Shown here: positions 21,939 through 40,762 of the stretch, piece after piece
Layout of the letters: the number at the start of each line of letters is the position of its first letter
Numbering within the stretch: the stretch's first letter is position 1
Origin: a virus
Taxonomy: Duplodnaviria; Caudoviricetes
Virus record (IMG/VR): IMGVR_UViG_3300046720_000004
Coordinates: 1-53,699 of that record
DNA length: 53,699 bases
Strand: one strand, 5' to 3'
Made by a program: the position numbers and the translations under genes
Notes under the pieces: generated by a model
The model's input: the letters and a program-made list of their open reading frames with translations, nothing else
What the model was told of the DNA's origin: nothing
The model's database searches: none

Positions 21939-21946
21939 CGTCGTGT

Positions 21947-22689: not shown

Positions 22690-22703
22690 CCTGGTCATAG
22701 GCG

Positions 22704-22793: not shown

Positions 22794-22816
22794 GGAACCC
22801 CAACGAAAGGTCCAAC

Positions 22817-23316: not shown

Positions 23317-23420
23317 CCCGCCGCGCGCACCAGGCCCCGCCCACCGCGGCGGGGGCGGAACACGACAGCGGCCGGGCGGCGGTAGGCCGCCCGGCCCGAG
23401 AGAAAGTCGCTCCCTTGAGC

Positions 23421-24071
23421 ATGATCCGCATCGCGGGGCCGATCGGCCCTCAGGACATAACATCGATCGCCAAGGCGGCAGCCTTGGACGACAAGCTGAG
23501 CTACGCGGCCCGCGGGCTGCTGCTCGACCTCATGAGCCGCCCAGAGGACTTCCTCGCCAGCGCAGACATACTGTCCCGGGCAGCCCGCGCCGCCCGCGGG
23601 GACACGCTGGGCGAAGGCCGCCGGGCGATGCGGGCGCTCTTCGCCGAGCTGGAGCGGGCTGGGTACATACGGTGGGGGCGGAGTCGGACTGCGAGCGGGG
23701 AGTTCTTCACCGCGATCACGGTGACCGATCTTCCGGGCCATGAGGAAACTGCGGAGGTTTCCCAACCGGCAGCCCCCTCAAGGCTGGAGACCGACCAGAG
23801 CGGCATCGTCTACGTCATCGGGGACGGCCGCAGCAACGTCGTAAAGATCGGGATTACCAAGAACTTGCGGTCTCGACTCAAGGGCATGCAGGTCAGCTAT
23901 CCATACGAGCTACGCGTGCTGTGCTCTTTCCCGGGCAGCGTCGGCCTGGAGGCGCATCTTCACCGGCGTTTCCACGGTCTGCGAACGCAGGGCGAGTGGT
24001 TCGACTTCGCCGGGGTCGATGCCGTCGCGGTGATCTCTCAGGCCGCTGCCAACTTCGAGGTGACCGAGTGA
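23421..24071 (+). CDS. wHTH fused to a T5orf172/GIY-YIG-like domain
   Basis: D.KLSYAARGLL..L.SRP...ELERAGY N-terminal half; IVYVIG...VKIGIT..L.SRL..Q...E.HLH.RF..R.QGEWF C-terminal half. Confidence 0.8.
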   Translation: MIRIAGPIGPQDITSIAKAAALDDKLSYAARGLLLDLMSRPEDFLASADILSRAARAARGDTLGEGRRAMRALFAELERAGYIRWGRSRTASGEFFTAITVTDLPGHEETAEVSQPAAPSRLETDQSGIVYVIGDGRSNVVKIGITKNLRSRLKGMQVSYPYELRVLCSFPGSVGLEAHLHRRFHGLRTQGEWFDFAGVDAVAVISQAAANFEVTE

Positions 24072-25264
24072 GCCTCGACCCGATCCTGTGGGCGCTGAAG
24101 GACGCGACCGTAGCCGACAGCCTGGAACGGCTCGTCCTGGTCGTCCTCGCCGAACACGCGGGCTCCGCGGACGGCTGCACCGCCTTCCCGTCCCGCGACA
24201 CCATCTCGTCGCTCGTCCTCGCCGACCCGAAGACCGTGCAGCGAGTGATCCAGCGGCTCATCAAGCGCAGGCTGATCGCTCGCGGCGACCAGAGCGCAGC
24301 CCGGTACATCCGGGCGGACCGGCGGCCCGTGGTGTACGACCTGCTGATCCCGTACTCGTGGTTCCCCAACCCGGAGCGAATGAACGAGGAGCGCCGGAAG
24401 CGGGGCCTGACGCCGTTGACTCCGAAGGACCGGCCGGACATCGTTCTCGCTCCCTCCAGGGCGCGGCGCAAGGACCTGGGCGTTCCGCGGCCGAAGAAGG
24501 TCGAGCGGGGGGACTCGCAGTCCCCGCGTCAGACGCAGGAGCAAACCGGGCACGGGGGGACTGTGAATCCCGCACGGGGGGACTCACAGTCCCGCACGGG
24601 GGGACTTGAAGACCCCCGAACCTCCTATGTGAACCTCCCATCTGGAAACCACCCATCTCTCTCTCCTCCGCCGTCACCTGAGCCGCCCGCCGCTGCTCCC
24701 GTTGCCGGCGAGGAGAGAGAGACGATCGCGGCTTCGCCGGACAAGCCCACCTCCACTGCCCAGCGGGTGGTCCGTGCCGCTGCCGTCGTGACCGCCGAGG
24801 AGGAACCGGCGTTCATCGCGTGGGCCACCACGGTCCATCAGCCCCGTGGCGGGGCGTGGTGGCGTGCTGTGGCCGCCAACGGGGACCTGCCCGACCTCGC
24901 CGACGAGTGGCGCGCAGAACGAGCCCCAGCGCCCGCACAACGGCCCCCAGCCCGGGTCATCCCCGAATGGTGCGGGCAGTGCGACGGCGAACCCATCGCC
25001 CAACGCTGGCAGGAAGGCGACGACGGGCGGGTGCGCCAATGCCCCCGCTGCCACCCCGACGCCATCCCCACCCACGCCGACAAGCGCGCACACCAGCCCT
25101 ACAAGAACCCGGTCGACCAGTCCGCCTACAACAGGGACCTGTGGGGACGGCCGCTACCCGGGACGGACACGCGGGTCGCCGGGTGGCTCGCCCTGCCCAC
25201 CCAACTCCAGGCCGAGGAAACCCAGGCGGCAGCGAGCATCGGTGACCCGTATCACCAGCCGTGA
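24068..25264 (+). CDS. Replication initiator 2 (N-terminal HTH, C-terminal Zn finger)
   Basis: RLVLVVLAEHA...AFPSRDTI...VQR.I.RL HTH; internal iterons; WCGQCD...CPRCHP. Confidence 0.75.
   Translation: MSLDPILWALKDATVADSLERLVLVVLAEHAGSADGCTAFPSRDTISSLVLADPKTVQRVIQRLIKRRLIARGDQSAARYIRADRRPVVYDLLIPYSWFPNPERMNEERRKRGLTPLTPKDRPDIVLAPSRARRKDLGVPRPKKVERGDSQSPRQTQEQTGHGGTVNPARGDSQSRTGGLEDPRTSYVNLPSGNHPSLSPPPSPEPPAAAPVAGEERETIAASPDKPTSTAQRVVRAAAVVTAEEEPAFIAWATTVHQPRGGAWWRAVAANGDLPDLADEWRAERAPAPAQRPPARVIPEWCGQCDGEPIAQRWQEGDDGRVRQCPRCHPDAIPTHADKRAHQPYKNPVDQSAYNRDLWGRPLPGTDTRVAGWLALPTQLQAEETQAAASIGDPYHQP
24506..24619 (+). repeat. Intragenic iterons (putative origin 2)
   Basis: GCACGGGGGGACT at 24550, 24572 and 24594 (22-bp period) plus CGGGGGGACT at 24506. 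Confidence 0.7.
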
Positions 25265-25347
25265 GCTGCGGTTTTACCGCCGAACAGGTACCGATCAAGA
25301 CGGCATCTGAGAGATAATCAACTACCGTAAACCAGGAGGAAACCATC

Positions 25348-26205
25348 ATGGGTGCCGCACTGCATCTGGCCCACGCCCACCAGCCTCCGCCCGGGCCGAA
25401 ACGCAAACGCAAGGGCGGCGGAGGGAATGATGGCCCGGAGGCGTTCGCCAGCTTCGCCAGACGGATCTACGCCGACGACCGGGCCGACGGCGACGCCCGC
25501 GCCCTGCTCCTGGCCGTCGCCTACGCCATCACCCTGTCAGGCGCCGGACAAGGTGACGGCCGGTCGCAGTGGACCGCGGTCCGGCAGGCTCTCGGTATCG
25601 GCATTGGCCGCCGCCGATGCGTGGATCCGCTCGCGGAGCTGGTGCGCAAGGACGTTCCCCGCTACACCTCGCCGGAGTACATGCCTGGCGGGTACGACTC
25701 GCTCCACCGCCGCTGTCAGGCCCCGCGGCTGCGCCCGTACCAGACGCGGATCCCGGCTGGCGCCGACGCACGCACCCGCGCGGCATATGCCAAGCAGGAC
25801 GCGGAAGACTTCCGCAACGCCCAAGGCGTCTGCGGTGAGGGCGGGCAGCACGGCGTGGTAGAGAAGGACCCCGTCACCGGCTGGCACACGATCCGGTACT
25901 TCTGCAACCGGCACCACGCTCACGCCGCGCGGGTCGCCGCGCAGGTGAAGGCGCAGAACGCCGCTGCCCCGGCGCCGATCCCGAACCAGGGCGGCCTGTT
26001 GCCGTCGTACTTCGACGCGGACTGGCTGCGGGTGTACCGCTGGCACTCCCGCCGGAAGGACTGGCAGCCGCCGGTGTACGGCCTGCGCGCCGACGACTGG
26101 CCCACCCCCGGCAGGGACACTCCGATCCACCACCCTCGGCTGCGCCTGGTCGTGGGTGGCACCGAACTCGACGGGGAAACCGGGCAGGATGGAGGGCATG
26201 GCTGA
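25348..26205 (+). CDS. Hypothetical Cys/His-containing protein
   Basis: AGGAGG RBS; C..PR, CG..G, FCNRH motifs. Confidence 0.65.
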   Translation: MGAALHLAHAHQPPPGPKRKRKGGGGNDGPEAFASFARRIYADDRADGDARALLLAVAYAITLSGAGQGDGRSQWTAVRQALGIGIGRRRCVDPLAELVRKDVPRYTSPEYMPGGYDSLHRRCQAPRLRPYQTRIPAGADARTRAAYAKQDAEDFRNAQGVCGEGGQHGVVEKDPVTGWHTIRYFCNRHHAHAARVAAQVKAQNAAAPAPIPNQGGLLPSYFDADWLRVYRWHSRRKDWQPPVYGLRADDWPTPGRDTPIHHPRLRLVVGGTELDGETGQDGGHG

Positions 26206-26440
26206 CACATGGGATGGCGACCCGCTCGCCGATGCGAACGTCTTGAAGGTGGACGTCCATTACCGGATCCACGACGTAGACACAGGCAAGCTCTTGGGAT
26301 TCGGCACGGCCCTTCGGGGGGTGCTCGGGGCGATGACGGAGCACTGCAGGCGCGTCGCGGACGCGAACCCTGGTCGGTTTCTCGTCGTCCGGCAGTACGA
26401 CCGGCCTGCCGGGCCGCAGTTCGAGAACGAGGCCGGGTAG
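26198..26440 (+). CDS. Hypothetical protein
   Basis: GGAGG RBS; overlaps the upstream stop. Confidence 0.6.
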   Translation: MADTWDGDPLADANVLKVDVHYRIHDVDTGKLLGFGTALRGVLGAMTEHCRRVADANPGRFLVVRQYDRPAGPQFENEAG

Positions 26441-26573
26441 CCTCCGGAGTTCCTGCGGCTCGACCGCCGCCCGACCGACCTTGCCGTGTGGCGGTCGATC
26501 AAGCCTGCCGGATCCGACCCGTTCAAGGTCGACGAGGAGGGTTGCTCGCCGGCATCTGACCCCGCACAACGCG

Positions 26574-26609
26574 CAGCCCCCGCCGCCGGACACCCGGCGG
26601 CGGGGGCTG
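26574..26609. terminator. Bidirectional terminator
   Basis: CAGCCCCCGCCGCCGG-ACAC-CCGGCGGCGGGGGCTG. Confidence 0.8.
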
Positions 26610-26622
26610 TGTCGTGCGGCGT

Positions 26623-26817
26623 TCAGCCGTCGGTCTTGGCTCTGGTGTTTGGCCGTGTCGGCAGCTTCGCTCCGGGCCGGCGCAGCCACCAGTGGACGAG
26701 TTCCTTGATGACGGTGCCCCGGTCGCTGTCCTGAGTTTCGGCGCCTGCGAGCAGGTCGGCCCAGTCTTCGTCGGAGAAGCGGACTGACCGGTGCTTGTTC
26801 TTGGGCACGTTCGGCAT
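26623..26817 (-). CDS. Ribbon-helix-helix repressor
   Basis: KHRSVRFSDEDW...R..VI.ELV.WWLRRPGAKLP.RP. Confidence 0.75.
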   Translation of the reverse strand: MPNVPKNKHRSVRFSDEDWADLLAGAETQDSDRGTVIKELVHWWLRRPGAKLPTRPNTRAKTDG

Positions 26818-26833
26818 GGGGCCACGGTAGCAC

Positions 26834-26905
26834 GGTGTACGTACAAGAACCTTGGGAAAGGGGGTTGTGGTGTACGTACAGAACGCGCTAAGGTGTACGT
26901 ACACC
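26834..26905. promoter_or_regulatory. Three palindromic operators TGTACGTACA
   Basis: Copies at 26836, 26871 and 26894 in the divergent intergenic region. Confidence 0.8.
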
Positions 26906-26925
26906 AGCAACTAGGGGAGTAGGTC

Positions 26926-27465
26926 ATGGCGCGTCAGCAGTGGTGGACCCTCAGCAAGCAGGACATGACCGAGCGCGCCGCCACCCTCGGCCACACCCTC
27001 ACCTGGAAGCGCCTCCCCCGCCCGACGAAGGACCACGCCCTCGTCTTCGAGGGCACGTGCGCCGACTGCGGTGCAACCGTCCAGATCGGCCGCACCTGGT
27101 CCTCATGCGGGACCATCCGCAACGCCCGCGACGAAACATGCTCCGGGCCCGGCACCACGGTCCTCACCGAAATCGAGCAGGGGCGTGCCAGCGAGCTGTT
27201 CGCCGAAGCGGTCGGTGAGTACGTCCAGGACCTCGCGGACGCCGGTATCACCTTCGCCCGTCCGAAGGCGCCGTTCCGCAACCCGCTCGCCCCGGAGGGC
27301 GAGTGCGGCGTGATGAGCCGCGACGGCTACACCTGCACCCGCCGCCTCAACAAGCGCGGCACCCACAACGGCAACGAATGGGGCGGCCCGCACGGGCACG
27401 TCGGCACCCACCCCGACGACGACTTCACCAACCCGTTCGACGACGACGCCGTGCTCTACGCCTGA
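26926..27465 (+). CDS. Hypothetical Zn-binding protein
   Basis: GGGGAG RBS; CADCG, ECG...CTR...H. Confidence 0.65.
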   Translation: MARQQWWTLSKQDMTERAATLGHTLTWKRLPRPTKDHALVFEGTCADCGATVQIGRTWSSCGTIRNARDETCSGPGTTVLTEIEQGRASELFAEAVGEYVQDLADAGITFARPKAPFRNPLAPEGECGVMSRDGYTCTRRLNKRGTHNGNEWGGPHGHVGTHPDDDFTNPFDDDAVLYA

Positions 27466-27489
27466 CAGTGATGATGTGAGTGGTGGTTC

Positions 27490-27680
27490 TGCTGATGCGT
27501 CTGACTCGCCGTCTGACTGACGTCTTCGACTGTCCTGTTTGGGATTTGTCGGCGCGTCGGCGGGGCCACCACGCACGCGGCCGGACGGGCGCTTGTGACT
27601 TCATAGGAGCTTGGTCAAGAAGCCCCGTCACTGTCTTGTCCACCCGCCCGACCGGCGCGTGCCGCCCTCGGCTCGGACAA
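27490..27680 (+). ncRNA. Putative bridge/seek RNA of the IS110
   Basis: Contains CATAGGAGC (identical to the right end) and TCACTGTC (reverse complement of the left-junction GACAGTGA). Confidence 0.55.
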
Positions 27681-27695
27681 GCGGCAAGGACGGAC

Positions 27696-28781
27696 ATGAC
27701 CAGCATGACGCACGACAGCCCGGAGATCACCGGCGGAGTCGACACCCACGGCCTCACCCACCACGCGGCGGTGATCGACTCCATCGGCCGGCACCTGGCC
27801 GACCGGGAGTTTCCCGCCTCCATCCGCGGCTACCGGGACCTGCTGGACTGGATGCGTTTGCATGGCGCCCTGGCCGCGGTGGGTGTGGAGGGCACCGGCG
27901 CCTACGGGGCCGAGCTCGCCCGGGTGCTGACGGCGGCCGGGGTGGCGGTCGTCGATGTGGACCGCCCGGACCGCAAGACCCGGCGGATGAAGGGCAAGTC
28001 CGACCCGATCGACGCCTACGCCGCAGCGACGGCTGTGCTGTCCGGCCGGGCCACCGGTATCCCCAAGAGCCGGGACGGTGTGGTCGAGGCGGTGCGGGTG
28101 CTGCGGATCGCGCGTCGCAGCGCGGTCAAGGCCCGCACCCAGGCCATGAACCAGATCCGGGGCCTACTGGTGTCCGCACCCGCGATGCTGCGCGAACAGG
28201 TCGCGGGCCTGGAGCGGGCCGCGCTGATACGCACCCTGGCCCGGCTTCGGCCCGGACAGGACCTGTCCCGTCCGCTGGCCGCGACCCGGGCGGCGCTGCG
28301 CCGCCTGGCCCGCCGCCACCAGGCGATGGATGAGGAGATCACCGAGCTGGACGCGGAGATCGGCCCGCTGACCCAGCAGGCCGCCCCCGCGCTGCTGGAG
28401 CTGTTCGGCGTCGGTGCGGAGACCGCCGGCCAACTGCTGGCCTCGGCCGGGGACAACCCGGAACGGATGCGGTCCGAGGCCGCGTTCGCGCACCTGGCCG
28501 GGGTCGCACCCATCCCGGCGTCCTCCGGCCGCACCCACCGCCACCGCCTCAACCGCGGCGGCGACCGGGCCGCGAACAACGCCCTGCACACCATCGTGCT
28601 GGTCCGCATGCGCTACGACGAGCGCACCCGCGTCTACGTCGAACGGCGCACCAAGGAAGGGCTGTCCAAGAAGGACATCATGCGCTGCCTCAAGCGATTC
28701 GTCGCCCGCGAGGTCTACCGAGCACTGACCACCACACCAACAGCACGAACCACTCAAACCGACCTCGCTCCTGCGGCTTGA
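27696..28781 (+). CDS. IS110 DEDD transposase/recombinase
   Basis: GGVDTH, GVEGTGAYG, KSDPIDA, P.PASSG, RLNRGGDR.AN.AL. Confidence 0.95.
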   Translation: MTSMTHDSPEITGGVDTHGLTHHAAVIDSIGRHLADREFPASIRGYRDLLDWMRLHGALAAVGVEGTGAYGAELARVLTAAGVAVVDVDRPDRKTRRMKGKSDPIDAYAAATAVLSGRATGIPKSRDGVVEAVRVLRIARRSAVKARTQAMNQIRGLLVSAPAMLREQVAGLERAALIRTLARLRPGQDLSRPLAATRAALRRLARRHQAMDEEITELDAEIGPLTQQAAPALLELFGVGAETAGQLLASAGDNPERMRSEAAFAHLAGVAPIPASSGRTHRHRLNRGGDRAANNALHTIVLVRMRYDERTRVYVERRTKEGLSKKDIMRCLKRFVAREVYRALTTTPTARTTQTDLAPAA

Positions 28782-28879
28782 CATCCATAGGAGCATCCCC
28801 GCACCAACCCCGGCCCCGCCCTTCGCCGGGCGGGGCGCCCACCGCCCGCCACCCCTACCGCCCGCGAAGGACCACCCCC

Positions 28880-29023
28880 ATGGACGTGTACGAGATCACC
28901 GAGGACGACGCCAACCAGGACATCGCCGAAACGCTGATGTGGGCCGCGTCCGAGGGCAAGCCCCTCGTGGTCACCCTCACCGACGGACGCGTGGTGCACC
29001 TCGTCCCGAGCGCCGCAACCTGA
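28880..29023 (+). CDS. Small hypothetical protein
   Basis: GAAGGA RBS; MDVYEITEDD... Confidence 0.55.
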   Translation: MDVYEITEDDANQDIAETLMWAASEGKPLVVTLTDGRVVHLVPSAAT

Positions 29024-29058
29024 CCAACCCGCACCACCGACCCGAGACGGAGCCCACT

Positions 29059-29334
29059 GTGACCGCCCGCCGTGACACCGCCTACACGACCGCCGCCCCG
29101 CAGGTGTGGATCCTGAGGAGCGGAGAAGACCACGAAGGCGGCGGCGTCCTCGGCGTCTACGCCACCAAGGACGCCGCGAAGAGTGCGTTCGTCGAGGCCG
29201 CCCAATCCATCGCCTTCGACCTCGACGCGGTGTGGCAGGACGAAGACATCGGGGCCGTACACGCCCACGGCGGCTGCGACTGGGTGTCCCTCGAACCTCA
29301 TGAGGTCATCGGCCTGCCGCAGCTCACCCCCTGA
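29059..29334 (+). CDS. Hypothetical phage protein
   Basis: VWIL..GED.EGG.VLGVYAT...A motif. Confidence 0.6.
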   Translation: MTARRDTAYTTAAPQVWILRSGEDHEGGGVLGVYATKDAAKSAFVEAAQSIAFDLDAVWQDEDIGAVHAHGGCDWVSLEPHEVIGLPQLTP

Positions 29335-29368
29335 CGCCCGACCACCACCACCAGGAAGGAGGTGCCCC

Positions 29369-29833
29369 GTGGACTGGAGGCACCGCGCGGAATTGAATAT
29401 CGGTGATCACGAACAACCACTGCGGAGGCGTCACCGCCGCGGACTAGACCTTACCGGGATTGTCAACGAGAAGTTTGCTGACCGGTTCTGGTCCAAGGTC
29501 GATCGCGCCGGCAATTGTTGGGAGTGGGTGGCCCACTGTAAGCCCAATGGTTATGGCCAGTTCACAGTCAGCAAAGGCCTGTTCTACGGCGCCCATGCAG
29601 TCAGCTACGCACTGGCATACGGCGCCATACCCCCGAACATGAGTATCTGCCACCACTGCGACAACCCCCCTTGCGTCAACCCTGACCACCTCTTCATGGG
29701 GACCCAGTCAGACAACGCGTTCGACATGCTCGCAAAGGGCCGGGCCAATCGCTCAAGGGGCGAGGACGAGCGGCGGCGGCTCCGGCGCTCCCGGCAGCCA
29801 TCCCGCCAGCGGCCCCGCACCAACACCGCATGA
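29369..29833 (+). CDS. HNH endonuclease domain fused in frame between WhiB-like termini
   Basis: AAGGAGG RBS; MDWRHRA...; RFWSKVD..G.CWEW...GYGQF...AH..SY...CH.CDNP.CVNP.HL..GT..DN; ...EDERRRLRR. Confidence 0.7.
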   Translation: MDWRHRAELNIGDHEQPLRRRHRRGLDLTGIVNEKFADRFWSKVDRAGNCWEWVAHCKPNGYGQFTVSKGLFYGAHAVSYALAYGAIPPNMSICHHCDNPPCVNPDHLFMGTQSDNAFDMLAKGRANRSRGEDERRRLRRSRQPSRQRPRTNTA

Positions 29834-29891
29834 CCCACCGCCCCGCCCGGCGGTGCGCCGGGCGGGCACCCGACACGGCAGGAAGAACCCC

Positions 29892-30395
29892 ATGACCGAC
29901 AGCCCGAACCGCGACCGGCTCCACGCCCACCTGTACGACGCGATCGACGCCTTCCAAAGGACCACCAAACTGCCCGGCCTCCAGCACGCCCAGATGCGCG
30001 GCCACCTCGCCGACCACCTCGCCCGAGTGCTCGACGCTGAGCCCGAGCGGGACGCATGCCCGTCCCGTTTTTCCGCCACCCCGGCCGAGATCGACCGATG
30101 GATGCGCGAGCACTTCGCCGAGGACGCCTACCTGCGCTACCAGCAGGCCATCGGTAGGCGGGCCGTCGAAGATGCCGTTGAGGACGCGCAGGTGGTCCGC
30201 CGCCAGGCCGACAACGAGGGCCTGAACAATGCGGCCTGGCGGGAGGGCTGGGATGACGCCATCGACCGCATCGACCCGGACCGCACCGGCGACCCGTACC
30301 CGTCAGTGCTCCAGTGCTCCCGGCACAACGGCTTCGGGGACTGCCCCGGCGCGCCGTGGTGCACACCCGGGCAGGACACGCCGCCCGGCCCTTGA
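29892..30395 (+). CDS. Hypothetical protein
   Basis: MTDSPNRDRLHAHL...; strong GC3 bias. Confidence 0.6.
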   Translation: MTDSPNRDRLHAHLYDAIDAFQRTTKLPGLQHAQMRGHLADHLARVLDAEPERDACPSRFSATPAEIDRWMREHFAEDAYLRYQQAIGRRAVEDAVEDAQVVRRQADNEGLNNAAWREGWDDAIDRIDPDRTGDPYPSVLQCSRHNGFGDCPGAPWCTPGQDTPPGP

Positions 30396-30414
30396 CCGCC
30401 GCCCCACCCACGAC

Positions 30415-30444
30415 GAGGCCCCGCCGGATCTCCGGCGGGGCCTC
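30415..30444. terminator. Bidirectional terminator at the convergence of the plus-strand block and the early arm
   Basis: GAGGCCCCGCCGGA-TC-TCCGGCGGGGCCTC. Confidence 0.85.
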
Positions 30445-30467
30445 ACTGCTGGCGGCGCAAGGGCGGG

Positions 30468-30953
30468 TCAGGCTGGCGCCGCCAGCCACTCCGGGGTGAG
30501 CCGCCACCCGTCGGCCGTAGCCGCCAGATGCCGCTCATACAGCTCCCGGATCGCAGCCTCACCCACCGACCGGCCCCCCGTCCTGGCCCGCTCCGCGTCC
30601 CGCCGGATGCACTCCTCCAGCGGCACCCCGGTCAAGTCATGCACCACCCACACGACGGTGCGGGCGAACACGTCACGGAGTCGACCCGGCCCGAACGGCG
30701 TGAGGTGGGTGTTGTCCACCACCAGGTCATAGCCGCCCTCAATGCACGCCAGGATCGCGGCGTCCTGGACGCGCACGGCTGTCCGCTCGTGCTCCCGGCT
30801 CCACGGCTGCCCGGGGTCGAGCATCGCCCGAATGTCGTCGAGGTTGACCCGCCGCACACGGCCGCCGGACTCGGCGACGAGCCGCCGGGCGACGGTGGTC
30901 TTACCGGACGCGGGGAGCCCGGTGGTGAGATGCACGGTGCGCGGCTCAGGCAT
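30468..30953 (-). CDS. P-loop kinase (polynucleotide kinase/PseT N-domain-like)
   Basis: GLPASGKTT, VNLDDIR, VVDNTHL, PLEECIRRD..R. Confidence 0.85.
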   Translation of the reverse strand: MPEPRTVHLTTGLPASGKTTVARRLVAESGGRVRRVNLDDIRAMLDPGQPWSREHERTAVRVQDAAILACIEGGYDLVVDNTHLTPFGPGRLRDVFARTVVWVVHDLTGVPLEECIRRDAERARTGGRSVGEAAIRELYERHLAATADGWRLTPEWLAAPA

Positions 30954-31218
30954 CGACGTCCTCCCCGCTGCCGTCGTCTGTGATGGTGCACTCCGGGTGG
31001 GGGTGAACTTCCTCGCCGTTCTCCTCGTAGCAGAGTCCGCAGTCGAGGAGCCGGTCGATGTGCTTGGTCCAGTTCTTGTTGAGCCCGCATAGCAGGCACC
31101 ACGGGTTCGGCCCGTCGGGGATGTACCGGTGCCGGGCGTCTTGGGCGTCGCCAGCGGTGCCGTCGATCCCAGCAGCCCGCCGGGCAGCATCGCCCCGGTC
31201 CTGGAAGTCGGTCATCAC
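30946..31218 (-). CDS. Small Cys/His protein
   Basis: CLLCG, CGLCYEE.GEEVHPHPEC. Confidence 0.6.
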   Translation of the reverse strand: MMTDFQDRGDAARRAAGIDGTAGDAQDARHRYIPDGPNPWCLLCGLNKNWTKHIDRLLDCGLCYEENGEEVHPHPECTITDDGSGEDVDA

Positions 31219-31739: not shown

Positions 31740-31742
31740 GGG

Positions 31743-32773: not shown

Positions 32774-33006
32774 TTCTTCTCCTCGACGGTGAAGCTGATG
32801 ACGATCTCGCCATCGCGGACGTGGAACCGCAGGGCGTCATCGGGGAGCGAACCGACCGCGGGCAGGTCGCGGGCTTTCCAGTACGCCTGCTCGGCGGCCG
32901 CCCACGCCTTGCCGACTTCGGCGCCAGCGGCGCCCCAGGGTTCGGCGGCGGGAACGATCCACTCGCTGCGGGTAGAGGCGATCGTGCGGGTCGTGTATGT
33001 GGCCAT
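32770..33006 (-). CDS. Hypothetical protein
   Basis: Coupled; MATYTTRT...EWIVPA..PWGA. Confidence 0.65.
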   Translation of the reverse strand: MATYTTRTIASTRSEWIVPAAEPWGAAGAEVGKAWAAAEQAYWKARDLPAVGSLPDDALRFHVRDGEIVISFTVEEKK

Positions 33007-33169
33007 CAGGTGGTGTCCTTCGGGGTGTTGTTGCGGTGGGCGAGGTGCGCGCCCGCCCTCGCGGCCAGCTCCCGTATCCGTCGCCGCAGCAGCGCAGCCT
33101 CCTCCGGTGACAGGCGGCGGCGGGATGCGGCGTCAGCGAGGATCAGCGCCTGCTCGACACGCGTGGCGC

Positions 33170-33601
33170 TCACTGGTCCGCCTCCTCGGGCGGGCCGACG
33201 ATCCGGTAAGTCAGGCGGGTGCCGCCGCGGAGCCACAGCAGGTGCTCGGCGTCGGCCCGAGACCTGCAGAGCACCGCGATGGGGATCCACGCGTCGCGGT
33301 CCCGCATTTCCAGGTACCAGCGGTACCCGTCGAGGTGGTCGTGGCCGTCACGTCGGGCATACGTCGAGTCGCACCGGACCATGCCCCGGGCGCCGCACGT
33401 GCACTCGAACCAGGCGCAGGTTTGGGTGAACCTGATCGTGACCTGGTGTCCGTTCAGGACGGCGGTCCGCTCCCGCATCAGCCGGTCCGCGTGCTCGATC
33501 AGCCGTCCACGGGGCTCGGCGTGCTGGCGGTCGGTGTGCGGGATCCAGGCGCCGTTGGCGTCCCACGTCAGCGGCAGGTCACACTCCGGGCAATAGCTCA
33601 C
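33170..33601 (-). CDS. Zn-ribbon hypothetical protein
   Basis: CPECD, FECTCG; GTGA coupling. Confidence 0.55.
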   Translation of the reverse strand: MSYCPECDLPLTWDANGAWIPHTDRQHAEPRGRLIEHADRLMRERTAVLNGHQVTIRFTQTCAWFECTCGARGMVRCDSTYARRDGHDHLDGYRWYLEMRDRDAWIPIAVLCRSRADAEHLLWLRGGTRLTYRIVGPPEEADQ

Positions 33602-33954
33602 GGCTGCGCCTCCTCGCCGACGATTTGGCGGGCCACCGCGAGGGCGGGCGCGAGCCATGCCGCGTCCGGGCGGGACCGGCCCACGGACTCCGCCAGATCG
33701 GCGGTGTCCTCCAGCCACGCGGCTAGGGCCAGGCCCACGCCGGGGTGCATGGCCTCGATGTAGTCGGCGTTCGCCCCGTTGCTCATGGGCTCGTCCACGA
33801 CGTAAACGGGCGGCTCATCCTCGGCGCCGGGGCCGTTATAGAGCAGCCGGTCGCCGTGGTCGAGGGAGAGCCACGGGCCGGGGGTCAGTTCGGGATCGGC
33901 GAGCAGGGCGCGCAGCAGCGCGGCGGCCTGCCGAAGTTCGTCGGCCGCGGTCAC
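33598..33954 (-). CDS. Hypothetical phage protein
   Basis: ADELRQAA..LR...TPGPW...NADYI.AMHPGVG.ALA.WL. Confidence 0.65.
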   Translation of the reverse strand: MTAADELRQAAALLRALLADPELTPGPWLSLDHGDRLLYNGPGAEDEPPVYVVDEPMSNGANADYIEAMHPGVGLALAAWLEDTADLAESVGRSRPDAAWLAPALAVARQIVGEEAQP

Positions 33955-34066
33955 CGTCGCCCCCCGCGTATGCGCCCCAGCGCCCGGCGGCCGAGCGCCC
34001 ACACGGCGTACAGCACCACGGCGGCCAAGGGCAGCGTGGCGGGCAACGTGCCCCACACGCGGCCGC

Positions 34067-34351
34067 TCACCGGGCACCGCCAGCGGCGGGGGCGGAGTCT
34101 GCGTTGACGGCCGGGTACAAGTCCGGGAGCGCGAGGCAGGCGTCGATCACCTCGGCCAGGACTGCGCTGTCCTTCGGATGCGGCTCGCCCTTCGGGTGCA
34201 TGGTTCCGCGGACGTAGCCCATGACGGCGGCGTCTCGGATGAGCGCCCGCTCTCGGTCGGTGAGCGAGGCGAGAACGGCGTTCACCGCGTCAGCGCGGCT
34301 GGCGCGCTGCCTTTCCATGTAGCTGATCAGGAACTCGGGAAGATCAGGCAT
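34067..34351 (-). CDS. Hypothetical protein
   Basis: AAGGAG RBS; LTDRERALIRDAAVMGYVRG. Confidence 0.65.
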   Translation of the reverse strand: MPDLPEFLISYMERQRASRADAVNAVLASLTDRERALIRDAAVMGYVRGTMHPKGEPHPKDSAVLAEVIDACLALPDLYPAVNADSAPAAGGAR

Positions 34352-34407
34352 GATCGGTGCTCCTTCGGGTGTGGGGCCCCCGCCACGGCAGACGGGGGCA
34401 GGGGTGG

Positions 34408-34638
34408 TCAGAACTCCTCGGCGCGAAAGGCGTAGCCGGTCGGGTGCGTGACGGCCACGCCGAGGACGGCGTCCCGGACCTCGCGGCCGAACGTCAAGCC
34501 GTCGCAGCCGAAGGGGACGCCCTGGCCCGCCAGCGTCCGCAGCGCTGACATACCGACGGCCTCGCCGTCCGGCAGGGGCTCGGTGCTGGACTGGAACTGC
34601 GACCCGTCAGGGCGGGTGACGATCAGCCGGTAGGACAC
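34408..34638 (-). CDS. Hypothetical protein
   Basis: AAGGAG RBS. Confidence 0.55.
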   Translation of the reverse strand: MSYRLIVTRPDGSQFQSSTEPLPDGEAVGMSALRTLAGQGVPFGCDGLTFGREVRDAVLGVAVTHPTGYAFRAEEF

Positions 34639-34695
34639 GATCAGCTCTCCTTCTCGGGGTTGTGGTGCGGCTGCCGGGCGGGCGCACGGCAGGGG

Positions 34696-35253
34696 TCAGG
34701 GTGCGGGGTGGGCTGCGATGGCCTCGCGGACCGCGCGCACTGACGGCGCATCGTGGGTCGCCGGGTGCTGCGGTGTCCGCGCGAGCATCCGGCCGAACAG
34801 GCGCAGGCGCCCCGGCGGGCAGCCACGGGAATGCCACACCGCCTCATACCGCCACGTGTTGCCGCGGGCGTCAGCGAGCTCGCCGGGGGCCATGACACGG
34901 CCCACCTGCACGCGGACGAAAGGATCCCCCTCGCCGTCGTCGTCGGGTGGCGCCCAGTAGGCCTCGGCCTGCCAGCCGTGAGCCCGGGCGTGGGCGATCA
35001 GCTGCACCGCTGCCGCGGGCAGGGCGTAACCGTCGGGCGGGGTAGCGGTGATGGCGCGCAGCCGCGCGTCGAGGAGGGCGAGACGCGCCGTCTGCCGGGC
35101 AGTGCGGGCGCCACCAAGCCGGCGGAGCGTCATGTGGTCGGCGTACAGCCGCCGGTACTCAGCGGCCGGGGTCTCGGGCGTGCACGGCGGCGCGCCGAGG
35201 GCCTCGGCGTAGGCGTCGGTGAGCGGCACCGTGAGCGCCGCGGGTTCAGCCAC
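34696..35253 (-). CDS. Hypothetical protein
   Basis: AGGAGG RBS; coupled. Confidence 0.55.
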   Translation of the reverse strand: MAEPAALTVPLTDAYAEALGAPPCTPETPAAEYRRLYADHMTLRRLGGARTARQTARLALLDARLRAITATPPDGYALPAAAVQLIAHARAHGWQAEAYWAPPDDDGEGDPFVRVQVGRVMAPGELADARGNTWRYEAVWHSRGCPPGRLRLFGRMLARTPQHPATHDAPSVRAVREAIAAHPAP

Positions 35254-35674
35254 GAGGCACCTCCTGCCATGCGTTGACGGCGAGCCACGCGAGGACCGTG
35301 ACGGCCACGGCGAGCAGGGCGGCTGCGCCGAACACAGCCGCCCGCTGCAGGTCGTAGGCCCAGTGCGCGGCGGTCAGCAGCAGCTCGACCATGAACTCGG
35401 TGCCGGTCACTTGCGGCGGTCCTTCCGGTGGTGGATGCGGGCCTGCACACGCATGCCGCACGTGGCGATCAGGCAGAACACGGCGCCGATGAACGCGGCC
35501 GCGGGATTGACGGTCACGGGCGTCACCAGCCCGGCCGGTCGGGAGGCTTCGGGTTCGGCGGCACCGCACCCGTCAGCACCCTGACCACCGGGATGTGCGC
35601 CGCGCACACCAGCCCAGCGCCGAGGACAACCATCGGCAGGACCACGAGGGCGACCACCAGGGCCACGTGCCAGA

Positions 35675-36028
35675 TCACCGGGCCTCCCGCATCCACGCGG
35701 GGCGTCCGGGCGCAAGCTCGCGCAACCCGCCATCACTGGTCCAGGTGTGCGACCGGGCCCAATCCGCGCGCGGGGACGCGGCCCGCAGCAGCGCGGCAAC
35801 GGCGGCGGTCGCCCCCCGCGGCGGCTCAATCGCCTGACCAGCGGAAGTCGAGGCGAGCATGACGAACTCCATGCGCGGGGAACCCGACGCGTCAGTCCAC
35901 ACCGGGGTGACCCGGATCGTGCGCGCACCCGGGATCAGGGCGTCCACCGCCTGCGTCAATACCGTCGGCGGGGCCTGCGCGTGAAACGCCACCCCGTCAT
36001 GGACCAGCTTCGTCAAGGTGACCATCAC
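35675..36028 (-). CDS. Hypothetical protein
   Basis: Coupled; ..LL.A..PRADW.RSHTW. Confidence 0.5.
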   Translation of the reverse strand: MMVTLTKLVHDGVAFHAQAPPTVLTQAVDALIPGARTIRVTPVWTDASGSPRMEFVMLASTSAGQAIEPPRGATAAVAALLRAASPRADWARSHTWTSDGGLRELAPGRPAWMREAR

Positions 36029-36261
36029 GCCACCGCCCGCGGCGTCCAGGGGCGCGGCATGGCGTCCACGACCTGGCCCAGCTGGGCCACGAACAGGGCC
36101 CGGACATCCAGGGGCACGTCCGGGCCGAACTCAAGGTGCAGGCTCACCAGGGGCCCGCCGTGGCCATCCGCGGCCGAGATATGAACGACGGACTCAAGGC
36201 CCTCGGCGCAAGCGCCGCGCTGGGCCGGTCCGGGTCGGGTGGTCGGTATCTGCGGGTTCAC
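36025..36261 (-). CDS. Hypothetical protein
   Basis: Coupled small ORF. Confidence 0.45.
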   Translation of the reverse strand: MNPQIPTTRPGPAQRGACAEGLESVVHISAADGHGGPLVSLHLEFGPDVPLDVRALFVAQLGQVVDAMPRPWTPRAVA

Positions 36262-37289
36262 GGGCTACGCCTTTCTGTGCGGCTGGTACGGGGTCCCGCC
36301 CCGCCGGGGGGATGAGGGGCGGGACCCTTGGCCGCCACACCGTTGGGGCGGGAGCGGCCGGGAAGAGTGGTCAGGTGACCGGCGGAATGGCCGGGGTGAC
36401 AGCGGGCCGGATGGTTCACCAGGCGGTACGGGGCGGGTTGTCGGGGCCGGTTGGGCATCGGCGGGCGGGGGCCGGGGCGCAGGCGGCCCGTGGCCCTGTG
36501 CGCCCGCCTGCGGGCCTGAGACGCCCCGGGAACCTCCCCCGCCACCCATCGAGGGGGCTGCGGGCGGCACAGAGGCGTACAGGCCATCTCCTGGGGCCCG
36601 TTCGGGGTTGCGGGTAGGTCCGGTCATCGGCCTGCGGTCCTCTCGGGGGTGGGTGGGCTGCCAGCGGCCGTCTGCGGGCTCCGGCGCCCCGGGGGACCGC
36701 CGGGCCGGGTTCGTGGCCCCACGGGCCGTACAGCCGCCGTCTCGGGGCCCCTGACGGATCCGGGACCGTGCGATGTCGTCACCGGGCACCCCCACGCCGC
36801 CGGTCCGCGCGCACCAGCAACCACAACTCCCGATCACCCGGCCGACGCCGCGCGGTAGCCCACATCCCGACCCCAGCCGCCATCGCCAGCACACCCACCA
36901 CCCACACCAGGCCCGCCATCACGCCGCACCACCCCGCCGGTTGGCCCCGCCAGTGGTTGGCCCGGCAGGCGGTCCGACGGCAGGTCGGCGGCACATACCC
37001 ACAGGCGGCAGGTCGGGGCGAGAACGCAGCGCGGCGGCGGCGAGGAGCCGGCGGACCAGGTCCACGTCGGCGAGCGCCACAGGGTCGGTGGGCTCGGGCG
37101 GAAGGACACGACCCGGAACAACAGCCCAAGCGCAGGTCCATGCGTGGCGGCACACAGGGCAGCGGTAGCCGGCGAGGAGCCCGCCGTCACCATCCGGTAT
37201 CGCCATCAGCGGCAGAGCCACGACGCGGCGCGCCGGGTGATGGCCGGAGTCGCACACATCGCCGTAGCGCGGATTGAGGTCTTTCACGG

Positions 37290-39887
37290 TCAGCCCTTTC
37301 CGAGGTTGGCGAGGCGGGCGTAGTGGGCTTGCCACGCAAGCGGGATGTCGATCTTGTTGATGCCTTGGCGTTGCTTCTCGACGAGCACGTCAACCTCGCC
37401 GGAGCGGTCCTTCGCGCCCTCGTTGCGCTCGGTCTCGGTGGGCTCCGGGGGACGGTGGAGGAGCAGAACGGTGTCGGCGTCGTTCTCGATGGCCCCGGAC
37501 TCGCGCAGGTCCGACATGGCCGGGCGCTTGTCAGACCGGGCCTCCGACGCCCGGTTGAGCTGCGTGAGGGCTACGACGGGCACGTTGAACTCGATCGCGA
37601 GCCGCTTGAGGTCCCGGGAGATCTCGCCGACCGCGGAGACGCGGGACTCGTGTCGCCCGGTGGCTTTCATCAGCTGCAGGTAGTCGATGACCACGACGGC
37701 GGCGGGCATGCCCTGGCCGGACATCCACCGGAGCCGGGTGCGGACGTGGGCGACGGTGAGCTGCGACGCGTCATCGATGATCAGCGGGGCGGAACGGACC
37801 TGGTCGGCGACCTTGGCAATGCGGTTCCAGTCCCAGTCGCTGAACTTCCGCTCCTCGAACGCGGTCAGGGACACCCGCGCCTCGGCGGCCATGATCCGGT
37901 CATTGATCTGGGCGCGGGGCATCTCCAGCGTGAAAAGGGCAGCGGGCTGGCGGCACTTGACCGCGGTGTGCGTGGCGATGCCCAGACCGGCGAGGGAGTT
38001 GTGTGTCGGGATGCAGGCCCGGCTGGCCAGGAACAGGTGGCTCTCGTTGTCGACGCGCACGCACCGCACCGGGACCGATGGGATCGGCCGCACGTCCACG
38101 ATGTAGCGGCGGTCAACGCCAGCCCGGTTCGAGGTGACGAGGCGCTGCGCCTTGCGGGGCAGGTAGACGACCTTGTCGGTCGTGGTGAAGCTGACGGTGT
38201 GGCAGATGGACGTCTCCACCGTGCGGCCCTTCACGCTCTTTGTGCGCATCGTGGGCCGGTAGCCGAGCGAGGCGATCAGCTCGTAGGTGTCCTCAGCCAG
38301 GCGGCGGCTCGTGACGGCAAACCGGACGCCGCCGGCCTTGTTGACAGTGCCGTTCGTGTCAAGCAGCCCAGCAAGGAGGTCGCGGCGCTGCTGCTCCGAC
38401 GCCCGTAGGTACGAGAAGGGAATGTGCTTGTTCCCCAGGACACCGATGCTGCGGAGCAGCGCCGTCATGCTTTGGTGCTTCTCAGCCCGGGGCGCCGACG
38501 TCGGAACGTAGCTGCGCTTCCAACCGGTCAGGTTGGGGCCGGTGATCTTCCGGATGGTGTCGGCCGCGACGCAGACGTGGACGGCCGCGCGCTCGATCGG
38601 CATCCCGTCGCGCACCAGGGCTACGCCGTCGGCCACGCGCTGGCGCCATTCGTGCTGGTTGCTGATCCCGTAGAGCAGGTAGTTCTTCCGCGGCGTGATC
38701 TCGTAGCCGTCGAGACGGATCCGGTCGAGGATCTCGGGGTCGACAGTGGTGATCTCGGGGGTGAGCGAGCTGCCGTCCCCCAGCCACGCCCCCAGGGTGT
38801 ACGGGGAAATGGGCAGGTCGGCTTCGGGAAGGTTGAACGGGCGGGCATTGACGACCGAGTGATTGGCCCGGCGTTCAGCGGTCGCCGTCCTGACGGTTGC
38901 CGCGATCTCGGCAGTGGTGCGGACTGTCGGGAACGTGCGTTGGTTGCGGTAGCGGTTGTAGCCAGTTGCGGCCTGCTGGGCTGATCGCAGCGAGGCGCGT
39001 GTGTCTGTGAGCCATTGGTGCTCTGCGTCGGCGACGATCACTGTGCCGTCGGAGAACTCGACCTCGTAGCAGGGGCGATCGTGTATGACATCGGTCGCTG
39101 CCATCACGGTGCACGGCTTGCCGTCGGCCCCGATGAGCTGCTCACCGACTCGGATCTCACTCATCGTCGTCCAGCCGGTTGGCGTAGGCAGCGGCGTGTC
39201 GAGCGCCAACGCCTTCCCGCCGCCCGGTCGGGCCCCGATGACGACGAGCTGGCCGCCGCGGATGCGGACCTTGGCGTCGAGGTCGATCCAGGGAGTGGGA
39301 AGCACCGGGTTCAGGTCCGGCTTCTCCAGGGATTCGAGGTAGTCATCGAAATCGTCGGCGATCAGCAGGGCTTGGGCGTCGGGCCGCCCGCTGGTGGCGG
39401 CTTGGACGTCGGCGAGGATCATCTCCGAGTCGGTGAGCTCGAACGTCGCCGCGGAGGCGATCCGCATGCCGCGGTGGCATGCCTGCCACATGCCGCGGCG
39501 GGCAGCGTCGGTAGCCACGGTCTGGGCGTGGTAGCGGACCCCCTCGAAACCGACGGCGCCTTGCCGGGCGAGGTCGTAGACGCGGACGGGCTGCCGGCCG
39601 AACGCGGCGAGGCCGCCGGTCTGTTCGAGGTGGCGGACCACGGCCGGGCCGTCGACCCAGTTGCCGGATCCGGCGAGGTGGAGGGCGGCGGCGAACGCGA
39701 CGGCGCAGTGGAGTTGGTGGAAGTGGTCGGGGGTGACGAGTTCGGCGGCGGCTTCGGCGTAGTTGCGTCCGCAGATGGCGGCCCCGGCGACGGCGGTCTC
39801 GGCGTCGAGGACGTCTTGGCTGGGGTTGTGGGCGGTGACGGTGGCGGGGATGCCGCCGGTTTCGGGGTCGTCGTAGGGGGCGGTCAT
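37290..39887 (-). CDS. dnaB: Replicative helicase DnaB with intein
   Basis: AE.AV.GA N-domain, IGARPGGGK|intein|S, FTLEM, VIDYLQL, QLNRASE.R.DKRP.MSDLRESGAIENDAD, KQRQG. Confidence 0.95.
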   Translation of the reverse strand: MTAPYDDPETGGIPATVTAHNPSQDVLDAETAVAGAAICGRNYAEAAAELVTPDHFHQLHCAVAFAAALHLAGSGNWVDGPAVVRHLEQTGGLAAFGRQPVRVYDLARQGAVGFEGVRYHAQTVATDAARRGMWQACHRGMRIASAATFELTDSEMILADVQAATSGRPDAQALLIADDFDDYLESLEKPDLNPVLPTPWIDLDAKVRIRGGQLVVIGARPGGGKALALDTPLPTPTGWTTMSEIRVGEQLIGADGKPCTVMAATDVIHDRPCYEVEFSDGTVIVADAEHQWLTDTRASLRSAQQAATGYNRYRNQRTFPTVRTTAEIAATVRTATAERRANHSVVNARPFNLPEADLPISPYTLGAWLGDGSSLTPEITTVDPEILDRIRLDGYEITPRKNYLLYGISNQHEWRQRVADGVALVRDGMPIERAAVHVCVAADTIRKITGPNLTGWKRSYVPTSAPRAEKHQSMTALLRSIGVLGNKHIPFSYLRASEQQRRDLLAGLLDTNGTVNKAGGVRFAVTSRRLAEDTYELIASLGYRPTMRTKSVKGRTVETSICHTVSFTTTDKVVYLPRKAQRLVTSNRAGVDRRYIVDVRPIPSVPVRCVRVDNESHLFLASRACIPTHNSLAGLGIATHTAVKCRQPAALFTLEMPRAQINDRIMAAEARVSLTAFEERKFSDWDWNRIAKVADQVRSAPLIIDDASQLTVAHVRTRLRWMSGQGMPAAVVVIDYLQLMKATGRHESRVSAVGEISRDLKRLAIEFNVPVVALTQLNRASEARSDKRPAMSDLRESGAIENDADTVLLLHRPPEPTETERNEGAKDRSGEVDVLVEKQRQGINKIDIPLAWQAHYARLANLGKG
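37998..39212 (-). mobile_element. Ala-start (class 3-type) intein with LAGLIDADG endonuclease, 405 aa
   Basis: ALALDTPLPTPTGW...DAEHQW...LGAWLGDG...LLAGLLDTNG...VRCVRVD...IPTHN|S. Confidence 0.9.
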
Positions 39888-40762
39888 GTGTTCGCTCCGA
39901 TGGCGTCGGGGTTGCAGGCGGGGCACCGGTATTCGCGGCCGTCGCGCTCCAGCCACCGGTAGCCGGGGGCGTCGCACTCACCGCACCAATCGGGCAGAGG
40001 CGGGGGTGCAGGCTGGGACGGCTTCGGTGGCGGACCGGCGGTGTAGGCGTCGTTGTAGCGACGGTCGCGGAGCCAGGTAGCGGAGAGCTTGATGTACTTG
40101 ATCGGCTCGCCTGCGACTTCATGGGCGTAGGCGACGGCGGCGGCGGTGATCTTCTTGGGGTCGACTCCGCTCAAGACGGCGGCAACCCAGAGGTCGCGGG
40201 TTTTGTCGAGGTCGCGGCTCTTCGGGTAGAGCGCCCAGAAGCTGCCGAACTCCTTTTTGTCCTCGTCGGTGATCTCGCGGGGCGGAGGGGTGGCGGCAGA
40301 AGAAGAGTTCTTTGAGGGGTATGAGGAGGAGGGGGTAGCCGTGGCTCCTTCTGAGTGAGCCGTGGCTACCCCTTGCGGCCTTGAAGGGGTAGCGGTGGCT
40401 CCTCCATGGGGTAGCGGTGGCTCCTCCTTAGAGGTAGCGGTGGCTACCCCTTCCGGGAGAGTGAACGGAGGCACCTTGAACGTCACCCGCGTGCCGGGCA
40501 CCGCGTACAGAACCCGACCGTCCTTGCCCTTGCCGATGGGTACGCGGAACTCCCAACCAGCCGCAGCGAGCCGCTTGAGGGCGTTACGGATCACATTGGT
40601 GTCCTTGGCGCCTGTCCAGCGGGCAAGCTCCTCAAGGCTGACGTAGCTCCTCCGCGTGCCCTCGCGGGCGTCGTCGGCGATCTCCAGGGCAACTGCGCGT
40701 TGCAGACCGGTGATGTCCGGCCCAAGCGCTTCCCGCAAGTCACGGCGGAGCTCGTAGCCCAT
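39884..40762 (-). CDS. Replication initiator 1 (lambda O-like), coupled to dnaB
   Basis: N-terminal HTH, GVATAT repeats, F..FW..YPK...K...TWLR..RY.D, C-terminal WCGECD...CPACNP. Confidence 0.8.
   Translation of the reverse strand: MGYELRRDLREALGPDITGLQRAVALEIADDAREGTRRSYVSLEELARWTGAKDTNVIRNALKRLAAAGWEFRVPIGKGKDGRVLYAVPGTRVTFKVPPFTLPEGVATATSKEEPPLPHGGATATPSRPQGVATAHSEGATATPSSSYPSKNSSSAATPPPREITDEDKKEFGSFWALYPKSRDLDKTRDLWVAAVLSGVDPKKITAAAVAYAHEVAGEPIKYIKLSATWLRDRRYNDAYTAGPPPKPSQPAPPPLPDWCGECDAPGYRWLERDGREYRCPACNPDAIGANT
40331..40451 (+). repeat. Five intragenic iterons GGTAGC(C/G)GTGGCT(A/C)C (putative origin 1)
   Basis: Copies at ~40334, 40357, 40388, 40410 and 40433. Confidence 0.75.

Follow-up and report, generated by a model that had tools for sequence, protein, structure and literature searches.

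Two replication initiators with iterons inside their own genes and a common cysteine ribbon on one phage/plasmid-like record

In phage lambda the iterons of ori-lambda lie inside gene O, and in phage P22 genes 18 and 12 couple an initiator directly to DnaB. In Bacillus subtilis, the zinc-binding domain of the helicase loader DnaI interacts with the replicative helicase. Here we compare with these systems two replication initiator genes, rep2 and rep1, of IMG/VR record IMGVR_UViG_3300046720_000004 (Duplodnaviria; Caudoviricetes), a metagenome contig of 53,699 bp (∼70% G+C, 'linear', CheckV completeness 69%) that was examined in full and is called the window below. A prediction made earlier from these letters (the original prediction) had described both genes and had proposed that their shared C-terminal Zn finger lets two origins use a single phage DnaB. 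The explanation that we favor, with a probability of about 0.6 for it as a whole, is that the record is part of a mosaic element, a temperate phage/plasmid hybrid from a Streptomyces-like host, that it holds two cassettes with the origin inside the initiator gene, and that the ribbon is a portable adaptor to a conserved host replisome protein.

Both proteins resemble lambda O in having an N-terminal DNA-binding domain, phased iterons in the linker-encoding part of their own gene and a putative C-terminal effector, and both match O-like families of the PHROG database ('replication initiation O-like'). For Rep1 the likeness goes further, as the next gene encodes its presumed helicase partner, a direct coupling of the P22 kind. 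They differ from O in that no match to the Pfam O-protein model (Phage_rep_O) was found at E ≤ 0.01 and in that the putative effector end consists of a helical domain and a predicted C4 zinc ribbon. The genes scanned included no P-type or DnaC-type loader. The small zinc module that DnaI carries on an initiation factor is a functional precedent for a DnaB hook, although in DnaI the module is N-terminal on an AAA+ loader and not C-terminal on an initiator. The Foldseek and PDB-profile searches made here returned no sequence or fold match to the DnaI zinc domain.

Plasmid pCQ3 (NC_013449) resembles the window in a different way. Its rep protein is 57% identical to Rep2 over amino acids (aa) 1-192, the same four-copy iteron array occupies the corresponding position of the gene, the same nuclease-like helix-turn-helix (HTH) gene and a GntR regulator stand upstream, and capsid, tail, TraA/TraB and integrase genes are present too. 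In contrast, the C-half of the pCQ3 protein is another one with a different Cys motif, there is no WCGxCD ribbon anywhere in the plasmid, and only 6 window genes match it at E ≤ 1e-5. A literature search found no paper on pCQ3 replication. The plasmid also holds a second candidate replication module (20708-24796 of our extract L004, which is pCQ3 65708-69796) with a 473-aa HTH protein, ParA/ParB and a DUF721 protein, which we take to be a DciA-type helicase operator. On a wider scale, pZL12/PhiZL12 and PhiNon1 are described as actinomycete elements that are both plasmid and phage, PhiNon1 also being able to integrate (PMC4487206, PMC7157519, PMC5431353). As far as the accessible text of these papers describes them, the window is like pZL12 and PhiNon1 in joining terminase/portal, FtsK-like/DUF2637, plasmid-type rep and integrase genes. 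With packaging genes, a plasmid-type rep and transfer-type genes on one record, its gene content is that of a pZL12-like plasmid-phage.

Build and ancestry of the two initiator cassettes

Both open reading frames (ORFs) are intact and lie at the coordinates originally predicted, and the GTG start of rep2 at 24068 agrees with the N-termini of its homologues. Genes were mapped by codon score and assigned to families by Pfam, NCBIfam and PHROG scans; domains were delimited in AlphaFold2 (AF2) models, for which we give the predicted local distance difference test (pLDDT). The features of the two cassettes are as follows.

24068-25264, plus strand: rep2, plasmid-type initiator, 398 aa (HTH_36 28.2 bits; phrog_1032 E 1.2e-15)
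24068-24442, plus strand: predicted winged-helix DNA-binding domain of Rep2 (aa 1-125; pLDDT 92-98)
24503-24615: Rep2 iteron array, four palindromic units GGGGACT-n-AGTCCC (19-nt units, spacing 47, 22 and 22 bp)
24617-24689: two GAACCTCC repeats and a GC-poor, strand-skewed stretch (GC 0.54-0.56, GC skew -0.70)
24749-24931, plus strand: four-helix domain of Rep2 (aa 228-288; pLDDT ∼96; 73% identical in protein P0005)
24965-25066, plus strand: predicted zinc ribbon of Rep2 (aa 300-333; pLDDT 58-73, two short strands)
25091-25144, plus strand: Rep2 tail motif HQPYKNPVDQSAYNRDLW, like the tails that end many ribbon-less Rep1-family proteins
39884-40762, minus strand: rep1, prophage-type initiator, 292 aa (phrog_270 E 5.2e-23; HTH_36 E 2e-4)
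40490-40762, minus strand: predicted winged-helix domain of Rep1 (aa 1-91; pLDDT 74-89)
40331-40459: Rep1 iteron array, five units with core GGTAGCC-nn-GGCTACC (spacing 21-33 bp)
40280-40349: GC-poor, strand-skewed stretch just past the Rep1 iterons in the gene sense (GC 0.56-0.62, GC skew +0.57 to +0.74)
40043-40285, minus strand: helical middle domain of Rep1 (aa 160-240, FGxFWxxYPK motif; pLDDT 86-97)
39899-39991, minus strand: predicted zinc ribbon of Rep1 at the very C-terminus (aa 258-288; pLDDT ∼55)
37290-39887, minus strand: dnaB with intein (DnaB_C 215 bits, above cut-off; TIGR00665 E 4.9e-80)
37998-39212, minus strand: intein in the P-loop of DnaB (aa 226-630; intein-less homologues align across the gap)

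The two proteins are built alike. Both models show the same order: the winged helix is followed by a long disordered region, then by a small helical domain modelled with confidence and finally by the ribbon, modelled with low confidence. Both proteins match phrog_270 and phrog_678. Rep2 matches HTH_36 (PF13730) with 28.2 bits, above the curated cut-off of 25, and HTH_Crp_2 is its other Pfam match at E ≤ 0.01; for Rep1, HTH_36 is the sole such match and falls below that cut-off (21.5 bits, E 2e-4). The winged helix of Rep1 contains many invariant columns in the family alignments (A2, A3), and a profile-profile alignment of the winged helices of the two families covers 68 columns with a probability of 89.7% (E 1.9e-6). 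Thus the N-termini, which had been thought unrelated, are related, both being winged helices of the HTH_36 type. Foldseek searches of the PDB with both models had no match at E ≤ 0.001 and returned only generic winged helices (MarR/Fur-type for Rep2). The middle domain of Rep1 matches phrog_10293 (E 6e-14) and also 'primosomal protein' phrogs.

In both genes the iterons lie within the coding sequence, where the iteron DNA coincides with the linker that AF2 models as disordered. The Rep2 array has exact copies of GCACGGGGGGACT at 24550, 24572 and 24594, that is at the 22-bp spacing first predicted, with a degenerate fourth copy at 24503; Tandem Repeats Finder reports period 22 and score 83. A loose search for this iteron (≤2 mismatches) was not above chance (6 matches against 5.28 expected; 40 of 100 shuffles reached 6), and the case for it comes from the exact, phased copies and from the four-copy array kept at the same gene position in three homologous rep genes, those of locus L007, of pCQ3 (L001) and of an S. 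xanthii plasmid (L002). The units are imperfect palindromes, and consecutive copies are translated in different reading frames, which argues for a constraint on the DNA rather than on the peptide. The Rep1 iterons likewise stood up: 5 matches were found at 40334-40447, a number reached in 0 of 100 shuffles, and the palindromic core was found again in four relatives (L068, L069, L074, L087). A dip in GC with extreme strand skew follows each array (G+C 0.54-0.62), and after the Rep2 array L007 and the S. xanthii plasmid share with the window the GAACCTCCC pair and the GAACCTCC repeats. The skewed stretch past each array is the likely melting site, so that 24617-24689 and 40280-40349 are candidate unwinding elements of a Rep2 and a Rep1 origin, respectively.

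The ribbons of the two proteins are 18/34 identical by BLASTP (E 3e-8), and a six-frame scan of the window found the motif in these two proteins only. Both ribbons are preceded by a proline-rich tether and have two CxxC knuckles ∼15-18 residues apart, the pattern of a C4 zinc ribbon that may bind zinc. The shared ribbon of the original prediction is therefore real, but it stands at the very end in Rep1 only, because Rep2 continues for 65 more residues as a tail predicted to be disordered. At the DNA level the ribbons pair as an inverted repeat (46 nt, 76% complementary, 25021-25066 versus 39899-39944), the first one listed for the window. Recent gene conversion between them was considered and rejected, as the identity over these 46 nt is only 76%.

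Rep1 is, as had been noted, coupled to the only dnaB of the record: the rep1 stop overlaps the dnaB start in ATGA (ACATGACC), and DnaB_C matches the record once. The DnaB scores 269.5 bits against TIGR00665, below the cut-off of 385, a shortfall that we attribute to the intein splitting the match. The intein (405 aa) begins directly after the P-loop lysine, starts with Ala and not Cys, ends with His-Asn followed by Ser and contains two LAGLIDADG-like motifs; we take this to be the pattern of class 3 inteins, which were first described in a mycobacteriophage DnaB. No match to DciA or to single-stranded DNA-binding protein (SSB) was found in the record.

The cassettes also differ in their relatives. 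Those of Rep2 (118 related clusters) include, for aa 1-190, 34 plasmid records, 24 of them from Streptomyces; the N-half (∼190 residues) is ∼57% identical to pCQ3 and other Streptomyces plasmids, and the neighbours that the relatives in pCQ3 and the S. xanthii plasmid have in common are a GntR regulator and DUF2637 or TraB. Rep1 (318 related clusters) had zero matches in the plasmid collection, while its relatives occupy 25 loci on genome contigs of Streptomyces, Kitasatospora and Catenulispora, complete chromosomes included. Against phages Rep1 gave two weak matches, both in one Mycobacterium phage, and it is absent from the 99-kb provirus that contains L007. With relatives of Rep2 on plasmids and of Rep1 on genome contigs, a fair reading is that the element joins a plasmid-type to a prophage-type replicon, and it is reasonable to see in them two replicons for two life styles. 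This part of the original prediction, two initiator/origin cassettes, was upheld in outline, with different ancestry added; the part that made the ribbon a hook for the single phage DnaB was not, as set out below.

We propose the following mechanism. The element would carry two lambda-O-style cassettes of different ancestry, each with the origin inside the gene of its initiator. The N-terminal winged helix would bind the 4-5 palindromic iterons within the stretch of its own gene that codes for the disordered linker, and melting would follow at the GC-poor, strand-skewed stretch just beyond them. The effector end would be the small helical domain with the proline-tethered C4 zinc ribbon. Rep1 would be the prophage-type copy, translated together with the element's own DnaB, and Rep2 the plasmid-type copy beside regulator and transfer genes. 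Most likely the ribbon would attach the initiator to the host replisome, through a conserved protein such as the host DnaB or primase, and would not be a private hook for the phage DnaB. Gene structure, the iterons and their conservation, domain order, the shuffling of the module and the distribution of the ribbon make a solid structural description; we infer the origin activity, the melting sites, the binding of zinc and the kind of partner the ribbon has.

Spread of the ribbon and its candidate partners

A DNA pattern made from the ribbon motif found 60 stretches in viral contigs. From these came 56 ORFs read in frame, in most of which the ribbon lies 31-40 residues before the C-terminus. 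We then compared a 37-position ribbon profile with 1.84 billion proteins and obtained 981 cluster representatives at E ≤ 0.001 (50 at E ≤ 1e-10), mostly replication initiators, with many different N-termini, and actinobacterial. Among the best 150 of the 981, the ribbon ended ≤15 aa from the C-terminus in 92/149, 36 proteins were shorter than 150 aa, and the commonest phrogs were replication initiators (phrog_270 in 55/150, phrog_391 in 36/150). A full-protein scan of 25 proteins (22 viral ones, Rep1, Rep2 and P0005) was likewise led by initiation phrogs (phrog_2447 in 11, phrog_3926 in 11, phrog_270 in 10), with HTH_36 in 7. In the scans made, no Pfam or NCBIfam model matched the ribbon, Rep1, Rep2, P0005 and two viral ribbon proteins were without an NCBIfam family, and no description of the ribbon turned up in the literature text within reach of the search. 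A word-based search with the ribbon alone returned 2 proteins among 4 candidates, and in the ESM Atlas the Rep2 ribbon had a best score of 0.80, with actinobacterial clusters only.

The ribbon is optional in both families, being present in 10/120 Rep1-family and 15/118 Rep2-family proteins; some four-Cys motif is found in the second half of 55/118 Rep2-family proteins. Protein P0005 has the C-half of Rep2 (73% identical over 148 aa) on a different N-half, and the Rep2-type N-half is fused to at least 4 different C-halves, including those of pCQ3, the S. xanthii plasmid and L007. Many Rep1 relatives end in a tail LRAVxGG-(W/Y)QP(Y/F)xNPxDxSVY in place of the ribbon, and a like motif follows the ribbon of Rep2. 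Judged from these sequences, the ribbon is a portable module that has been shuffled among many actinobacterial initiators, common and still uncharacterised.

The LRAVxGG tail was seen at L068, L072, L074, L075, L078, L081, L082 and L092 and in Rep2 (25091-25144). The initiators that carry it have differing middle domains, and its tip has acidic residues and then a hydrophobic residue, in which it presumably recalls the SSB C-terminal peptide. A gene at 262-936 of L061 (minus strand; L006 6521-7198) encodes a non-initiator that also ends in a WCGRC-type ribbon and sits two genes downstream of a ribbon-bearing replisome-organiser-like gene, which indicates that the module is not strictly confined to initiators.

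Could the ribbon be no recruiter at all? It might bind DNA (for example the melted strand) or pair initiators for copy-number control or stability, which we regard as unlikely. Some proteins carry 2-4 ribbons in tandem (more than one in 15/149 of the best matches), and P0241, P0242 and P0243 consist of almost only three or four of them, an arrangement that would suit pairing or DNA contact. The loop's basic residue R is nearly invariant without being imposed by the scan pattern, and the best match of the ribbon-protein profile among PDB sequences, a weak one, is 5y05 (E 0.11), a mycobacterial coiled-coil protein that we take to carry a zinc ribbon. On the other hand, in the Rep1 family the ribbon is replaced by short acidic-hydrophobic tails that resemble protein-docking peptides, and it sits on a proline-rich tether at the extreme C-terminus, although none of these points is decisive.

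The original prediction had both ribbons recruit the element's single DnaB, so that a lytic and a plasmid origin would share the phage helicase. This is improbable in our view. Only 6/25 ribbon-bearing virus records have DnaB_C, and 2/7 of those ≥90% complete, so that dnaB is missing in 19/25 records and in 5/7 near-complete ones; dnaB lies ≤2.5 kb downstream at 4/21 viral ribbon loci. The ribbon occurs in 981 clusters and is optional in both families, and relatives of Rep2 are found on plasmids; one of these, pCQ3, has no annotated DnaB. Among the 25 genome loci of the Rep1 family, dnaB follows one ribbon-bearing gene (L069) and two ribbon-less ones (L078, L082). This distribution suggests that the ribbon is used mainly by elements that encode no helicase themselves and that a coupled dnaB needs no ribbon, which makes sharing of the phage DnaB less likely than a general adaptor for a host protein. 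A ribbon aimed at a host replisome protein would thus be the more likely case, as far as comparison of sequences can tell.

Several observations nevertheless weigh against a host partner or against the strength of this comparison. Within 2.5 kb downstream of the 21 viral ribbon genes lie 49 ORFs, and of their families DnaB alone recurs (4 loci). The ribbon gene directly precedes dnaB in the window (with the ATGA overlap), at L054 (with the same overlap) and at L069; this recurrence and direct adjacency lend a link to the helicase some probability. The record has one dnaB, no match to DciA or SSB, and the precedent of DnaI, which holds a helicase by a zinc-binding domain, speaks on the same side. 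Both window ribbons are of a minority 'RW' variant: the usual T/S before R is missing in 2/36 scanned viral ribbons, RW occurs in 0/9 other Rep1-family ribbons, and each window ribbon stands high among the ribbons nearest to the other (5th and 13th of 276). This shared rare variant fits a common partner within the element, although the numbers are small. Viral records are often incomplete, and a missing dnaB is therefore weak evidence. Eight ribbon columns (W, C, G, C, D, C, P, C) were fixed by the scan pattern itself, and the AF2 models support the ribbon fold with low confidence (pLDDT 55-73 across both; short strands, in Rep2 only). A complex prediction with DnaB (865 aa), Rep1 240-292 and Zn scored 0.13 and 0.05 against a mark of 0.32, which is evidence for neither side. 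A more specific version would make the ribbon, WCGxCD...R...CPxC(H/N)P, an undescribed, portable adaptor that is joined directly to the initiators of actinobacterial phages and plasmids and recruits a helicase or the replisome, with the same RW in both copies since both replicons engage the same partner, possibly the element's DnaB; we hold this as a tentative idea with the odds clearly against it. Taking all this together, we prefer the portable adaptor to a conserved host protein.

The record and its other genes

The left end of the record cuts the portal gene. Apart from the two cassettes, we found the following genes.

1-441, minus strand: portal gene fragment (phrog_104 E 3.4e-46)
452-2086, minus strand: large terminase (phrog_19179 E 1.7e-144)
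after the terminase, minus strand: HNH gene and tail-fibre-like genes (family scans)
14467-16632, minus strand: FtsK/SpoIIIE-like gene, candidate for transfer (phrog_1358 E 1.5e-15)
16638-17759, minus strand: DUF2637 gene, candidate for transfer (DUF2637 E 1.2e-34)
20519-21817, plus strand: two GntR/UTRA regulator genes (family scan; GntR at the corresponding position in pCQ3 and in the S. xanthii plasmid)
23415-24071, plus strand: HTH and MUG113/T5orf172 (nuclease-like) gene, overlapping the rep2 start by 4 nt; a counterpart precedes the pCQ3 homologue
27480-28781, plus strand: IS110-family transposase, 2.2 kb downstream of rep2 (87-90% identical to Streptomyces and Embleya plasmid copies)
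51705-52934, plus strand: tyrosine integrase (Phage_integrase E 4.2e-18)

The two GntR/UTRA regulators, the HTH-MUG113 gene, rep2 and the IS110 transposase form a plus-strand block; a minus-strand early block contains a polynucleotide-kinase-like gene, dnaB, rep1, an exonuclease, a Rad52-like recombinase and a methylase. The N-terminus of the HTH-MUG113 protein weakly matches initiator phrogs (phrog_4707 E 1.4e-4), and the gene after rep2 (25348-26205) had no family match in Pfam, PHROG or NCBIfam. A 36-nt inverted repeat, 86% complementary (20398-20433 versus 22656-22691), lies in the divergent intergenic regions that flank the GntR genes and is possibly the pair of operator sites of these regulators. 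A 56-nt direct repeat, 80% identical (13510-13565 and 17840-17895), brackets the FtsK-like/DUF2637 block. A tRNA-linked attachment site inside the record was considered and rejected, as no tRNA gene was found in it. Megablast of 22000-45000 gave no phage matches, and plasmid matches in the IS110 region only.

One public soil DNA sequencing run (X1) contains the sequence, and no RNA sequencing run is listed as containing it. In a second assembly of X1 (Logan), a single contig covers 21169-35437 with zero differences, running through rep2 and the IS110 element and 5 kb into the early-gene block; read depth is even (8.6-9.6) save for the IS110 bins at 11-12, which suggests further IS110 copies in the sample. 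Given the unbroken contig and even depth, we take rep1 and rep2 to be parts of a single molecule; to be set against this, X1 may be the record's own source sample. That the two replicons came together by accident, through an assembly chimera or a recent plasmid-prophage fusion with one idle replicon, would suit a 'linear', 69% complete metagenome contig with an IS110 transposase close to rep2 and only six genes matched in pCQ3, but it is very improbable given the Logan contig, the intactness of both ORFs and both iteron arrays, and the fact that pCQ3, too, combines phage and transfer genes with two candidate replication modules.

Consequences for replication in actinobacterial phages and plasmids

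How helicases are loaded at the origins of actinobacterial phages and plasmids is poorly understood, and to our knowledge their hosts have no DnaC-type loader. A common, unnamed C-terminal module, found in at least 981 clusters and moved as a unit by natural domain swaps, would be relevant to this question. Should the ribbon only bind DNA or stabilise the protein, the finding would shrink to an ordinary annotation. If, by contrast, the RW ribbons do share the element's DnaB, one helicase would serve both a lytic and a plasmid origin. In either case a single element allows a plasmid-type and a prophage-type replicon to be compared side by side, and the two compact rep/ori cassettes might serve as parts for Streptomyces vectors.

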